Source: a bacterium (GTDB taxonomy: Bacteria; UBA8248; JACPRG01; G963555815). Taken from it: a DNA stretch of 64,000 bases. A program made the position numbers and the translations under genes. This document shows, piece after piece, positions 10,706-15,696 of this stretch (positions are counted from its first letter, which is position 1; each line of letters begins with the position of its first letter). The notes beneath the pieces were generated by a model. The model was not told where the DNA came from. It saw only the letters and a list, made by a program, of their open reading frames with translations, and searched no databases. The DNA lies in assembly GCA_965218795.1 (NCBI GenBank), contig OZ244653.1:4896001-4960000 (forward strand), written 5' to 3'.

Positions 10706-11746
10706 TTACCCCGTTTCAGTGGACAGTTTATGGCTGTCACCTCCAGCCCTGAGTTGGGCGACAGCCGGTGGACGTAAAGTCTTCCCCAAGATCGGTGGAT
10801 AGGATATCGCTGGAGGGGATATCTTTCCCTTTGGCTCTCCGCTCCAGCAAGCACCGGGCACCCCTCGGGCCGGACGATGAACGTTGCGCACTGCACCCGG
10901 CGTTGCCTTCGCCGCGTCGCGTTCGTAGTCGTTGGGGCTGAGGTAACCCAGGGCGGAGTGCCGGCGGCGTGGGTTGTACCAGCCTTCGATGAATTGGAAG
11001 ATCGCCATGCGCGCCTCGGCCTGGGTACGGAACGAACGCCGGTCGATGAGCTCGCACTCCAGCGTGGCGAAAAAGCTCTCGGCCATGGCGTTGTCATAGC
11101 AGTCGCCGGCCGACCCGGTCGAGGGAAGCACCCCCATCTCCCGGCACCGCTTGCCGAAGGCGAGCGAAGTGTACTGCGTTCCCCGGTCCGAATGATGCAC
11201 GACCCCATAGGGCCGGCGCTGTCCCAGCGCCATGTTGAGCGCCCCGAGCACCAGCTCGGTGCGAAGATGATGGGCCATGCACCACCCTACGATCCGGCGG
11301 CTGAACACGTCGAGCACGATGGCCAGGTACACGAACCCCGCCCAGGTCGGCACGTAGGTGATGTCGGCCACCCAGATTCGGTCCGGCCCATCGGCCTGGA
11401 ACTGGCGTTCGACCCGGTCCGGGACCGCACGATGACTCGGGTCCAGACGCGTGGTGCGCGTGCCCCGGCGCCGGCTCACCCCGGCCAAGCCCGCCTCGCG
11501 CATCAGACGAGCTACCCGTTTGCGGCTCACCCGACGCCCGTTGGCCGTCAACTCGGCATGCATCCGAGGCGCCCCGTAGGTGCCGCCAGATGCCTCGTGG
11601 ATGGCCCGGATCGTGCCCCCCAACGCCTCGTCGTGCTTCGCACGATTGGAACGCCCACGGCTTCGCCACGTGTAGTACCCGCTGGAGGAGACACCCAGCA
11701 CCCGGCACATCGTGGCCACCCGATGACAGGCCTGGTTCGCCTTCAC
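10706..11746 (-). CDS. IS3-family transposase OrfB (DDE integrase core)
   Basis: Motifs TYGAPR, WVADITY, LDVFSRRIVGW, HHSDRGTQY, DNAMAESFF and YNPRRRHSALGYLSP. Confidence 0.93.
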   Translation of the reverse strand: MKANQACHRVATMCRVLGVSSSGYYTWRSRGRSNRAKHDEALGGTIRAIHEASGGTYGAPRMHAELTANGRRVSRKRVARLMREAGLAGVSRRRGTRTTRLDPSHRAVPDRVERQFQADGPDRIWVADITYVPTWAGFVYLAIVLDVFSRRIVGWCMAHHLRTELVLGALNMALGQRRPYGVVHHSDRGTQYTSLAFGKRCREMGVLPSTGSAGDCYDNAMAESFFATLECELIDRRSFRTQAEARMAIFQFIEGWYNPRRRHSALGYLSPNDYERDAAKATPGAVRNVHRPARGVPGACWSGEPKGKISPPAISYPPILGKTLRPPAVAQLRAGGDSHKLSTETG

Positions 11747-11806
11747 GAGCCCGAAGACCTCCCCGGCACCGAGCCGGTCTCCCGTGCGAACCAGACCGCG
11801 GCTTTC

Positions 11807-13172
11807 CTAAGAAACTGCCTCCGCACCCTCCTGCAGAACATACCCCAGAGAAGCGGCCCGTCGGCGAAGATTCTTCACCACACGCTGACGATAACGCTCT
11901 TCATAGTATGAAGCGCCGGGATCCACATACTTCTGCCCATATCGCAGCGTGTTGTATAGCAGGACCGCAATCTTTCGGGCGGTGGCAGTCACCGCCTTGG
12001 CCTTGCCGATCCGCGCCGACAATCGACGATAGAACGCTCCGAGCGCGGTCTCGGTCCTGCCCACCGCCACCGCCGCCAGACGCAGCACCGCAGCGGCCCG
12101 ATTCGACGTACGGCGCGTTCTCGAGGCCAGAACGCGTCCACCGGAGATCTTGTTCGCCGGCGCCAATGCAAGCCACGACGTGAAGTGCTTCGCGCTCGGC
12201 CATCGAGACATATCCGTCCCACATTCGGCGATGATCTTCAGCGCAAGGTAGGGGCCGACTCCGTGAATCTGGGTCAGGTCTACGCCGAGCAACGCATACA
12301 GGGCGCCTCGTACGTCGAAGTTCAATCCGTTGGGCTGACGCGCCTTGTGCCGAGGCGCGGGCAGCGCCGCCGACGGCTCATCGACGCCATCACTGAGGCG
12401 ACCCAGGACCGCCTCGATTTCCTGGTCGCAGCGAGCCACTTGTGCTTGATACACATCGTACAGCTCCAGGGCCTGTCTCAGCGCAAAGACGTGCTCGCGT
12501 TGGTAATGCCCGACAAGCGCTTCACGGATCGTCTCGCGTGAGGATTTACAACGGCTGTCGCGCCATGCCGCGAGTAAGTCGGGGTCGACGACCCCCGACG
12601 CGATCGCCCGAATCATCCGCAGCCCCGTCACCCCCGTGATGTCGGACACAACATGGTGAAGCTGAACATTCATCTGGGTCAGCGCCTTTTGCATGTGTTG
12701 AATGTGCGCCGCTGCATAGTCGCAGGAGGCGCTCGCGCTGTCTCAGGTAAGACCGCAACTCTGCGATCCCGCGAGTGGGGCGAAAACTGGCTCGCAACAA
12801 ACCGTACTGGTGCAGCTGCTGCAGCCACTGCGCATCGTTCACGTCACTCTTGCGTCCCGGAACCGTCTTCACCTCCCGAGCGTTCACCACGATCACTTCC
12901 AATCCATGCTCTTGAAGGATCTCGAACAACGGGATCCAGTAAACGCCCGTGGACTCCATCGCGACCGTCTCGACCCCAGCCTCTTCGAACCAGTCGGCAA
13001 GACGCTGCAGGTCGTTGGTAAAGGTCTTGAAGGTGCGTACGGGCTCGTCAGTACCCTTCGATCCCACCGCGGCCACATGGATTCGCGACCCAATGTCCAC
13101 CCCCGCCGCATTGGGATGGACCACCGTCATGCCTCGGGAAGAACGTTTCGTCCTGCGCTTTGTACTCGCCAT
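11807..13172 (-). pseudogene. IS110 DEDD recombinase, split by a one-base frameshift near 12722
   Basis: DEDD residues in GVDIG, AMESTG and KSDVNDA; C-terminal IHGVG and NKISGG. The sequence CTC CTG C GAC TAT has one extra C between RERLL and DYAAAHIQHMQKAL. Confidence 0.88.
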
Positions 13173-13179
13173 GGGTCCC

Positions 13180-13411
13180 TCTCCTTAATCATGTTGGGAG
13201 ATGTCCGAGAGGCGGGACGGCGGTTCCCATCATTTTCCTAATCGGGCTCGTCGATCGACGGCGCCACAGTCAAGTCCGCAGCAGTCCCTGAACCACGTTT
13301 TTTGCGGGGTCATGATCCTCCAAAAAGCTGACGGTTGCTCCCCCCGGACATCGCACATTCTACGCTGCCCACCAAGTTTCCATTCGTCCAGGAAGACGCC
13401 GTCTTGTCCCG
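13180..13411 (-). ncRNA. Candidate IS110 bridge RNA in the non-coding left end
   Basis: ~240-nt non-coding end. It contains TTAGGAA and GTCCCG, which match the circular donor junction TTAGG-AA-CGGGAC, and CGCAAAAAA and CTGCT, which nearly match the occupied target. RNA boundaries are not defined. Confidence 0.6.
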
Positions 13412-13665
13412 TTTTTTAGGATCTCCCGCTCTTCGCGAAGCTGACGGACCTCTCGACGAAGCCGCCGCAGCTCCTCGAGCTCCGTACTTGTCAGACCGTC
13501 CTCACGACGGCCCTCGTCGCGGTCGGCCTGGCGCACCCAGTTGCGAATCACCGAAGCAGAACACTCGAACTCCCGGGCCAGCTCCCCGGGCGTACGGCCC
13601 GAGCGAACCAACTCGACCATCTGGCGCCGCTACTCCGGCGCGTAGGGCGAATGAGTCTTTCGCAT
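13412..13665 (-). pseudogene. IS3 OrfA (HTH), with an amber stop at codon 12 and interrupted by IS110
   Basis: Translates as MRKTHSPYAPE*RRQMVELVRSGRTPGELAREF...NWVRQAD...EEREILK and continues as KAAVWFARE beyond the IS110. Confidence 0.85.
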
Positions 13666-13748: not shown

Positions 13749-15367
13749 TCAGCCGTTGAGAAGATCGTTCGCAACCTGCCGCGCTTCGTCCAGAGTTTCG
13801 ACGATGTGCTCCTCCGGTACGTGCTGCAGGATACCGAGGGTGTGAAGGGTGTTCGCAACGGAGCCCGAGGCGCCCATTACGATGAACCCGATCTGCTCTC
13901 TCGTGGCGACGTCCATGAGCTGCTCTATCACCATGGCAGCGCTGTCGTCGAGATATGTGGCGCCGGAGAAATCAAAGATGACGACCTCGTGGTCCTTGAT
14001 GTCCGCGCTGATCACGCCCACCAGCTTGTAGGAGGATGCGACGGTGAAGCTCCCCTTGAGCGCCACCATGCCGACCCGCGCCGCGTACGGGTCCGCCGTG
14101 GCCATGTCCTCCCGTTCGGAGAAGAACGTCCGGTCCAGCAGTGGCACGGAAACCACGCTGTCGAGTTCCAAACCTTCCAGTTGCCGCGCATGGGCCATTC
14201 CTCCGGCGATCAGCCCGATCGCTACCGCGGTTACCAGATCGACGAACACCGTAAGGCCCAGCGTCATCAGCATGACGAAAAGGTGTTCGCGCCGGATGCG
14301 GTGGACACGGGCGAGAAGACGCCAGTCGATGATGTCCCAGCTGACTTTCATCAGGACGCCGGCGAGAGCGGCAAGAGGGATCGGCTCGACAGACTGGCCG
14401 AGGCCCAGCACCAGCGCCAGCGTAAGGATCGCCCCCAATGCGCCCGATACCCGGGTGAGTCCGCCGGCGCGTATGTTGGTCACGGTACCCACGGTGGCCC
14501 CGGCGCCGGGCAGCCCCCCGAAGAGTCCCGCAACCATGTTTCCGATACCCTGACCGACCAGCTCCCGATCCGGGTTGTGGCGCGTACCGGTCAGCGAATC
14601 GGCTATCAGGGAGGTGAGGAGGCTGTCCACGGAACCGAGCAGGGCGAGAATGAGCGCCGGCTGCACTGCGTGCAACAGGAAGCCGACGGACGGCAGCCCC
14701 AACTGCACGCCCGGCAGGCTGGTCGGCACCTGCCCGATGATCGGCGCATCGTTCAGCCACAGCACGCCCAGCAGCGTGCCGGCCATCAGCGCCGCAAGAG
14801 GAGCCGGCAGGAGTCTCGCCAGCCGACGGGGCCAGAGCACGCCAACCGCGAGAGTAACGGCGGCGATGGCGAAGGCGCTGAAGTTGATGTTGGCCACCGC
14901 CTCGGGCAACGCCCCGGCCGCGCGCCCATGGGTCCGCCCGGCGCGGTGGGCGCTCCGAGGAAGGGCATGGCCTGAATCAGCATGATGATGATGCCGACCC
15001 CGGACATGAATCCGGAGATCACCACGTACGGCGTGTAGACCACGAAGCGGCCGACCCTCGATATGCCCAGGAGCGCCTGCAGCAGACCGGCCAGAACGAC
15101 GATGGTCAGGGCTTCGGTCAGATCGGCCGCGTGCTTGGTGACGATGACCGCCAGAGCGACGGTTATTGGGCCTGTGGGGCCGGATATCTGGGACCGCGTG
15201 CCGCCGAACACCGATGCGAAAAAGCCGACCGCGATCGCACCGTACAGGCCGGCCGCCGGCCCCAGGCCCGACGCCACACCGAAGGCCAGCGAGATCGGCA
15301 GCGCCACCACCATGGAGGTGACGCCGCCGAAGATATCCCCGCGAAGCGTATTGAAGTCGTAGCCCAT
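13749..15367 (-). CDS. SulP/SLC26 family anion transporter with STAS domain (frameshift near 14920)
   Basis: First ORF carries GDIFGG..VVALP.SLAFG, SGPTGP and GFMSG. Second ORF carries ELVGQGIGN, G.LPGAGAT..T and STAS YLDDSA. A one-base shift joins them. Confidence 0.88.
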
Positions 15368-15395
15368 GTGACTATGTCCCGCGCCGGGCGTACAG

Positions 15396-15696
15396 GTGAT
15401 CACTGACGGCTGGATCGGCTATGCCGGTCTGCCGGACCACGACCACGGATATCCGAAGCTCATCGGCGCGATGGCCGCCCACGTGGCGCTGAAATGGACC
15501 CACCGCGCGTTCTCCAATCTCAAGCGCTGGGCCGCTCGGCACCGCGGTACGCCTTCTCCTGTCCACACCGACCGACCCACGCTGTCAGCGGACCTTGCCT
15601 GCGTCCTGAAACCCACTGCCAAGCCCAACTGATCGACCCGATCGTCGGCCCAGACGAGCAATATCCTGGAGCACGGGGGGGGCAAAGGGATACGCC
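15396..15696 (+). mobile_element. IS1595-family (ISXO2-like) transposase remnant with a possible right end
   Basis: Motifs ITDGW.GY.GL and AH..L.W.HR.FSNLKRW. GGGATACGCC at the end resembles a terminal IR. Confidence 0.6.

Follow-up and report, generated by a model that had tools for sequence, protein, structure and literature searches.

The window analyzed here is a 64,000-nt stretch of a bacterial genome (GenBank assembly GCA_965218795.1, contig OZ244653.1, positions 4,896,001 to 4,960,000), and it carries on its minus strand an insertion sequence (IS) of the IS110 family that is lodged within an IS3 element. Based on the comparison of its non-coding left end with those of its homologs, this left end very probably encodes a two-loop bridge RNA which directs the element into the poly-A frameshift site of IS3. 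On this comparative evidence the bridge-RNA system is judged to be real, and its architecture to be a new variation on a known kind of system.

The target and donor sequences were deduced from occupied and empty IS3 sites of the same genome. At the occupied sites the left junction is CCT-A6-CGGGAC and the right one TTAGG-A3-GCCGCGG, and in the two empty IS3 copies the sequence is CCT-A7-GCCGCGG. Because 6 + 3 − 7 leaves two A residues duplicated, the 2-nt core is the only sequence repeated at both junctions, and the only consistent parse gives a left target ...CCTAAAA, a core AA, a right target AGCCG..., a left donor ...TTAGG and a right donor CGGGAC.... The AA core and donor junction halves proposed in an earlier sequence-only reading of the window were thus recovered from the sites themselves. 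A contig from another run joined position 11803 to 13412, skipping 1608 bases. In the empty IS3 copy, frame 0 (...EILKKAAVWFA...) reached a stop 20 codons on, and the −1 frame was open from the A-run into orfB; judged by these frames, the insertion site is the predicted A7 −1 frameshift window (L-K-K-A-A) of IS3, as the sequence-only reading had supposed when it named a Lys-Lys-Ala-Ala window as the target.

The IS3 split by the insertion showed the Pfam domains HTH_Tnp_1 in orfA, and HTH_21 and rve in orfB. The genome holds four copies of the IS110 element, and the other IS3 hosts were 100/99.7%, 99.4/97.0% and 96.5/92.1% identical (left/right half) to the IS3 of the window. As these hosts have diverged and the IS110 copies are alike except for one indel, at least three separate insertions at the same position are indicated. 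A second IS3 subtype, with seven copies reading CTGGCAAAAGCTACGG at the frameshift place (e.g. G000 1909876, 2655894 and 177622), was entirely unoccupied; the relatives L054 and L148 of other genomes, with guides reading TGAGCAAA, were inserted in the similar variant TTGGCAAA / CTGGCAAA + GGCTACGG. All guide-readable bases (A7-GC-N-G) were present at 19 sites of the genome, two of which are the empty IS3 copies.

The recombinase was assigned to the IS110 family, in line with the RNA-guided recombinase candidate of the sequence-only reading, by its N-terminal DEDD RuvC-like domain (PF01548, DEDD_Tnp_IS110; E = 8.1e-21), its C-terminal Tnp domain (PF02371; E = 5.9e-14) and, for the intact copy, a match of 259.1 bits (cutoff 140) to the NCBIfam model NF033542, 'IS110 family RNA-guided transposase'. 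Residues D26, E73, D110, D113 and S343 were invariant among 16 homologs, and S343 was aligned with the SG of the YESGSS segment of IS621; by our own reading of the numbering, we take the serine of this segment to be the catalytic S241 of IS621. The sole difference among the four genomic copies was a 1-nt indel near 12722. The extra base was carried by two copies, and the other two (L003 and L004) encode an intact protein of 454 amino acids (aa). Both alleles were also present in public-run contigs (from four runs, which also show the empty site), so the frameshift that had been noticed at ~12722 is more than an assembly slip. In the window copy the single transposase frame is split into open reading frames (ORFs) of 208 and 295 aa.

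Homologs were collected on the basis of the transposase, for which all 8000 scored candidates were significant and the best was ~70% identical. From 80 loci of species genomes, 80 loci of metagenomes and 2 plasmid loci, the 330 bases upstream of each start codon were aligned with MAFFT, yielding 137 distinct left ends. The left end, which lies at 13411-13173 directly upstream of the ribosome-binding site, was conserved from ~60 bases inside the element up to that site. The right end was near-invariant, with TCTTAGG in 124 of 130 homologous ends followed by AA in 129 of 130, and the first base after the left junction was C in 132 of the 137 left ends.

A fold with two arms was obtained with RNAalifold on 52 sequences, and a closing helix (P1) and two stem extensions were added to it by inspection. 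In the plain MAFFT alignment of the 52 left ends, 91.1% of the cells were paired against 82.4% after shuffling, and 191 cells were changed on both sides against 74, a value reached in none of 500 shuffles; controls with slid partners gave 39-52% pairing. When the alignment was fitted to the model (63 distinct sequences), which leans it toward the structure, 93.2% of the cells were paired, with 100% for P2, 99% for P3 and 99.4% for P6. The base of the donor-binding arm, P4, was 98.7% paired, with double-sided changes in 30, 12 and 23 sequences at three of its pairs. Both arms were built alike, from a stem, a 5′ strand of 9 nt, a UGG.G...CCCG stem-loop and a 3′ strand. Three invariant G-U pairs and one frequent G-U pair, which would be A-C mismatches on the other strand, indicated that the RNA is read in the direction of the transposase gene.

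The covariance model R1, a check that the sequence-only reading had suggested, was built from the homologs and supported a structured two-loop RNA. In each of the 64 sources searched it placed the RNA immediately upstream of the transposase gene, also at loci outside its training set such as Aeromonas and Agrobacterium plasmids, and in the element's own genome it found exactly the four element copies. Among 100 related genomes there were only three marginal matches of ~30 bits (E ~8e-4), a scarcity which fits a horizontally acquired element. These matches (G018:C1:28436-28534, G033:C1:366263-366396 and G037:C1:2559905-2560038) fall in one genus of the same class, and they may represent a distant relative of the RNA or chance. 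A search of Rfam returned four matches, all with E ≥ 0.18 and far below the gathering scores, and no bridge RNA among them.

All guide-like strings named in the sequence-only reading were present on the minus strand where it had placed them: CGCAAAAAA (13306-13298), CTGCT (13284-13280), TTAGGAA (13241-13235) and GTCCCG (13218-13213), taken as the left target, right target, left donor and right donor guides, and GCTTTTT (13328-13322), named as an alternative pairing partner. When the 239-nt left end was shuffled 20,000 times by mononucleotide, the frequency of occurrence was 0.16 for a 7/9 match to CCTAAAAAA, 0.15 for CTGCT, 0.077 for GTCCCG, 0.011 for TTAGGAA and 0.003 for GCTTTTT. Since most of these single-sequence matches are within chance, the decision between them rests on the homologs. 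Scans of every RNA column against the flanks, by mutual information and by excess matches, were dominated by clade effects and were replaced by permutation tests of defined strands.

As shown by the permutation tests, the strands of the target loop covaried with both target flanks. The 3′ strand, CAAAAAA, read in the same sense as the left target and core and was followed by an invariant C at 13297; the proposed left target guide was thereby narrowed to 13304-13298, its identity with the left target being matched in 0/5000 permutations. Natural retargeting of this guide was seen in homologs reading CAGGGAAA, TGGCAAA, CCAAGAAA, TTGAAAAA, CTTAAAAA, TTCTCAAA and TTACATAA. The 5′ strand, that of the fallback GCTTTTT, proved to be the true right target guide (0/5000). 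It was complementary to the top strand A-AA-AGC.G (core plus right target) and followed TCGT, TCAT, ACTT, CCTT, GCGG and others across the homologs; the same-sense control gave no signal (543/2000). The string CTGCT bore no relation to the target, 3719 of 5000 permutations reaching the observed value, and it lies at the junction of two conserved stems, where it covers the last stem base and a conserved bulge. Likewise, the base after the invariant C showed no relation to base 2 of the right donor (3639/5000).

In the donor loop, the 3′ strand was identical to the right-end TTAGG plus core, and it mirrored the variants of the right end: TCAGG in 5/5 cases and ATAGG in 1/1 (26/5000 permutations). 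With six of six variant right ends matched, TTAGGAA was retained as the left donor guide. Its outermost position was looser, an ATAGG loop being found with a TTAGG end in two loci and GTAGG in six. The two bases that follow it tended to equal the first bases of the right target, as a handshake guide would. The first base was identical in 38 of 55 pairs against 29.5 expected (3/10,000 permutations), and the two-base test, with the variants GG, GT and TC, gave 9/5000, a modest signal uncorrected for phylogeny.

GTCCCG was rejected as the right donor guide. Together with GGGAC (13288-13284) it forms the stem at the base of the donor arm, where four of the five pairs change on both sides, and the donor test gave 4953/5000; it lies in a stem rather than a loop, an outcome that the sequence-only reading had itself listed as speaking against its guides. 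Its complementarity to the left end was peculiar to the window element and L005, and homologs with the same GTCCCG had other left-end starts (CGCCCC in L006, CATCCA in L020). The donor guides had been graded as convincing and the target guides as tentative, and this grading held for half of each pair: one guide stood and one fell in either loop. The 5′ strand of the donor loop, ACUUGACUG, did not track the start of the left end, which is highly variable; it is shared by L010 and L011, whose left ends start CCATCG and CGAGCT. At some loci (CUUAGGA in L009) this strand is similar, in the same sense, to the right-end terminus, a likeness that was not significant (346/5000).

The ends of the element carry further conserved features. 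The right-end GTTTCT was unchanged even at synonymous positions of the last codons. The stop codon is at 11809-11807 and the element end at 11806, the right end extending 3 bases past the stop codon. At the left end, two hairpins of kept shape and variable sequence were formed by the first ~35 bases (13411-13376), upstream of the −10-like motif listed below; they may act as DNA or as RNA. It may be speculated that these hairpins, or the AGAAAC-GTTTCT repeats, take over donor recognition. A divergent metagenomic homolog, L111, had a 3′ target-loop strand UCUAGGAGC matching a left flank that resembles a degenerate right end of the element's own clade; its donor loop reads UAUGAGAG and its own right end is the standard TTAGG. 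L111 may be chimeric, or it may be directed at the end of some other element. The features of the element are collected in Table 1.

Table 1. Features of the IS110-family element, its predicted bridge RNA and its IS3 host, in window coordinates.
Feature	Position	Strand	Details and basis
IS110-family insertion sequence body, 1606 bp	11806..13411	minus	left end 13411, right end 11806; comparison of four copies, empty-site junctions, contig joint
Transposase gene, broken in the window copy	11807..13172	minus	parts 12546-13172 and 11807-12694; one extra base near 12722
Host IS3 split by the insertion	10706..13620	minus	orfA part 13620-13414, orfB part 11803-10706; Pfam
Left AA core copy, at the end of the left target	13412..13413	minus	A-count arithmetic, 6 + 3 − 7 = 2
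Right AA core copy, between TTAGG and right target AGCCG	11804..11805	minus	A-count; AA after the right end in 129/130 homologs
Predicted bridge RNA core, ~147 nt	13203..13349	minus	covariance model R1 match 13351-13202, 142.4 bits
Closing helix P1	13349-13340 with 13212-13203	minus	all 10 pairs change on both sides; 80.6% paired
Target-binding arm	13291..13336	minus	P2 13336-13332 with 13295-13291; P3 13322-13317 with 13309-13305
Right target guide UCAGCUUUU, 5′ strand of target loop	13323..13331	minus	complement covariation, z = 9.7, 0/5000, 115 guide-site pairs
Left target guide CAAAAAA, 3′ strand of target loop	13298..13304	minus	identity covariation, z = 7.6, 0/5000 permutations
Donor-binding arm	13214..13288	minus	P4 13288-13284 with 13218-13214; P5 13279-13276 with 13223-13220; P6 13266-13258 with 13251-13243
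5′ strand of donor loop, 9 nt, semi-conserved	13267..13275	minus	no covariation with right donor or target, either sense
Left donor guide UUAGGAA, 3′ strand of donor loop	13235..13241	minus	identical to right-end TTAGG plus core; chance 0.011
Two bases after the left donor guide (AA), handshake-like	13233..13234	minus	tend to equal first right-target bases
TAGAAT, −10-like hexamer 7 nt upstream of P1	13357..13362	minus	TAnnnT recurs at the matching homolog column, alignment by eye
GGAAAC (AGAAAC in almost all homologs)	13376..13381	minus	inverted repeat of right-end GTTTCT 11815-11810; alignments by eye

From these features the following mechanism may be proposed. The RNA would fold into a closing helix that carries a target arm and a donor arm, each consisting of a stem, an internal loop and a UGG...CCCG stem-loop. 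In the target loop, the 5′ strand would read the right target and the 3′ strand the left target plus core; in the donor loop, the 3′ strand would read the left donor plus core. The DEDD/Ser recombinase would then exchange strands at the AA core, with TTAGG-AA-C... as the circular donor junction and ...TAAAA-AA-AGCCG as the target. That the RNA is made and bound by the recombinase, that a circle is formed and that strands are exchanged is what we infer from the comparison. The hexamer TAGAAT may serve as a −10 element, judging from its letters and position. With its own transposase frameshifted, the window copy would depend on the two intact copies of the genome.

Other explanations were weighed against this two-loop bridge RNA. 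It is scarcely credible that the RNA keeps the IS621-like order, in which CGCAAAAAA, CTGCT, TTAGGAA and GTCCCG would all act as guides in loops. The four strings do exist and GTCCCG is the exact reverse complement of the element's first six left-end bases, but GTCCCG and CTGCT arise by chance at 0.077 and 0.15 and gave null permutation tests, and GTCCCG is tied up in P4, which L006 and L020 keep despite their differing left-end starts. Very unlikely, too, is a left end that is merely a 5′ leader or promoter with ordinary regulatory structure and incidental matches to the flanks. Such a leader would agree with the location directly upstream of the ribosome-binding site and with the single-sequence fold, which was no better than shuffles (z = 0.30). 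It would not, however, account for loop strands that change with the flanking target in many independent homologs, for the mirroring of the TCAGG and ATAGG right ends in the loop, or for the experimental RNA guidance that is reported for this family in IS621 (PMC11208160) and ISEc21 (PMC11187229). As to the four sites, copying of an IS3::IS110 composite (by IS3 transposition in trans or gene conversion) in place of repeated guided insertion is unlikely. L001 and L004 do lie in IS3 copies that are 99.7-100% identical, the intact IS3 ends make mobilization in trans conceivable, and the 17 other guide-compatible sites are empty. Nevertheless, identity to the IS3 of the window falls to 97-99% for the host of L002 and to 92-96% for that of L003, with a single indel separating the IS110 copies. 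Many relatives are inserted at the same IS3 position in unrelated genomes, and composite copying could account for one of the four copies at most.

Several results weigh against a bridge RNA that directs the element into IS3. The poor single-sequence fold, which was left unused as evidence, is one of them. Permutation tests, on which the guide assignments depend, were uncorrected for shared ancestry, and the left boundaries of the homologs were set by MAFFT column rather than by empty sites. A scan for sigma-70 consensus promoters found none in the left end or in the tandem right-end/left-end junction of L073, and no public RNA run with the element sequence was found. None of the 17 compatible sites outside the empty IS3 copies was occupied; either further target bases are read, or insertions elsewhere were lost or removed by selection. 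The transposase gene of the window copy is broken, leaving it without an intact recombinase gene. The circle junction had no match in the genome; the joint table of the run contigs lists the empty-site joint only and, as contigs drop rare forms, is silent on circles. Furthermore, no right donor guide was detected in GTCCCG, in the donor-loop 5′ strand or in the distal 3′ strand, tested as complement and as identity against left-end bases 1-12, and a by-eye comparison of right-donor candidates with the left-end hairpins and the right end yielded nothing that held across the homologs.

The bridge RNA proposed here was compared with those of known systems. It resembles that of IS621 in being encoded by a long left end upstream of the transposase gene, in its pair of pseudo-symmetric internal-loop arms, for target and donor respectively, in 'left' guides that run in top-strand sense and 'right' guides that are complementary to the top strand, and in handshake-type bases 3′ of the 3′-strand guide; the proteins share a DEDD RuvC-like domain and a Tnp domain in which a serine is aligned. 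The IS621 RNA has its left target and left donor guides on 5′ strands and its right target and right donor guides on 3′ strands (PMC11208158); it reads the right donor, and it has handshake guides (PMC11208158). The strand logic of IS621 is matched once the 5′ and 3′ positions are swapped (PMC11208160; PMC11208158), and only from the opposite strand of the recombination site does the system look IS621-like. The sequence-only reading had assumed the IS621 order of left target, right target, left donor and right donor guides, which was incorrect: the order found was right target guide, left target guide, an unassigned 5′ donor strand, and left donor guide. In contrast to IS621, the left guide is on the 3′ strand in both loops and the right target guide on the 5′ strand, the closing helix encloses both arms, the core is AA instead of CT, and a right donor guide and a junction promoter were not detected. 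The protein is also distant and longer (454 aa vs. 326-328 aa), its match to IS621 (PDB 8wt6_A) having E = 1.9e-5 and 27 bits, with only the Tnp domain aligning well.

In ISEc21, which is of the IS110 type, the upstream non-coding region encodes a seekRNA and the element targets IS3 transposase genes at DDE codons (PMC11187229). An IS110-type parasite of IS3 is therefore already in print, and the window element shares with it the upstream guide-RNA region and a conserved target inside IS3-family transposase genes. They differ in guide order, as the bottom-strand match is 5′ of the top-strand match in ISEc21, the reverse of the window element (PMC11187229). The seekRNAs of the IS1111 type (ISEc11, ISPa11 and ISKpn4) have the top-strand complement first (PMC11187229), and in the window element the top-strand complement is likewise 5′ of the bottom-strand complement. 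Subterminal inverted repeats are a further likeness to IS1111, here 6 bp long (GTTTCT / AGAAAC). On the other hand, IS1111 elements carry their non-coding region downstream of the gene and the window element upstream, and in IS1111 elements 7 bp lie outside the left repeat and 3 bp outside the right one (PMC11187229), whereas the left repeat of the window element is ~30-40 bp inside the end. The likeness to IS1111 is one of guide order and repeats. No mention of targeting of the IS3 slippery site, or of a left-end RNA with reversed guide order, was found in a literature search including the text of PMC11187229, PMC13604230 and the preprint 10.64898/2026.08.14.744561; figures and supplements lay outside this search, and either point could already appear in PMC11208160 (Extended Data Fig. 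10c, Supplementary Data) or in PMC11187229 (Supplementary Figs 11-12).

With regard to the target range of the clade, the left flank ended in AAAAAA in 107 of the 137 distinct left ends. Flanking domains were surveyed at 19 loci, picked non-randomly from 30 because long open frames adjoin the insertion there. At 13 of these 19, domains of transposase type exceeded the Pfam cutoffs (IS3-type rve/HTH_21, IS630-type DDE_3/HTH_33, DDE_Tnp_1_4 and Mu-type), and the remainder comprised three weak matches, one insertion in an epimerase gene and two loci with nothing. A second common target class, TTTAAAAAA-ACTTC, was observed at L011, L019, L023, L080 and similar loci, with HTH_32/HTH_33 in the left flank and DDE_3 in the right, as in IS630-type transposase genes.

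Tandem head-to-tail relatives were present at L017, L022, L056, L065 and L073, ~1.6 kb downstream of the first copy. The number of A residues that separate TTAGG from the following left end is 2, 3 or 4, a variation which suggests insertion into the A-run of an existing junction in shifted registers. Tandem expansion of IS110 loci has been described in the preprint 10.64898/2026.08.14.744561. Among plasmids of clinical origin, many from Citrobacter, Enterobacter and Serratia carry a ~65% identical member of the transposase family (H32-H41; 61 Citrobacter records). Beside the IS3 end of the window, two long overlapping ORFs of 386 and 205 aa in different frames (13749-15403, minus strand) look like one membrane-transporter gene split by a frameshift.

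Taken jointly, the polarity, junction, donor and target features raise the possibility, which we consider somewhat doubtful, that the clade is a distinct class of bridge system. The clade is large, its transposases numbering in the thousands at ~65-70% identity across soil and plasmid genomes. As a class of its own, it may combine a left-end-encoded RNA (the IS110 position) with the IS1111-type guide order and a closing helix that makes a three-way junction. Its RNA may read the right-end side of the donor only, subterminal repeats or left-end hairpins replacing the right donor guide. Its targets may be Lys-Lys windows rich in A, many of them within the transposase genes of other elements, examples being the orfA/orfB A-run of IS3 and the A-run between the HTH and DDE_3 parts of IS630-type genes.

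Programmable recombination with a single protein and two guides is known only from bridge and seek RNAs. Engineering has so far been built on IS621/IS622-like RNAs with a CT core; in the clade described here a natural scaffold with an AA core is available, along with a structure model and clear cases of retargeting in nature. The R1 model may help to annotate the clinical Enterobacterales plasmid records with ~65% identical relatives. An upstream RNA with the IS1111-type order runs counter to the simple rule based on the five elements that were tested in PMC11187229, and the guide order found here offers a way to learn what determines which strands are exchanged first. If the absence of a right donor guide is real, donor recognition would be partly independent of RNA. 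For the IS3 host, insertion exactly at the frameshift site would abolish the OrfAB fusion and leave the IS3 ends intact, a clean case of one mobile element using another as a safe harbor and possible vehicle. Should the clade indeed form a distinct class, it would be a specialized parasite of other insertion sequences, and it could link the IS110 and IS1111 groups and bear on which DNA strand is exchanged first.

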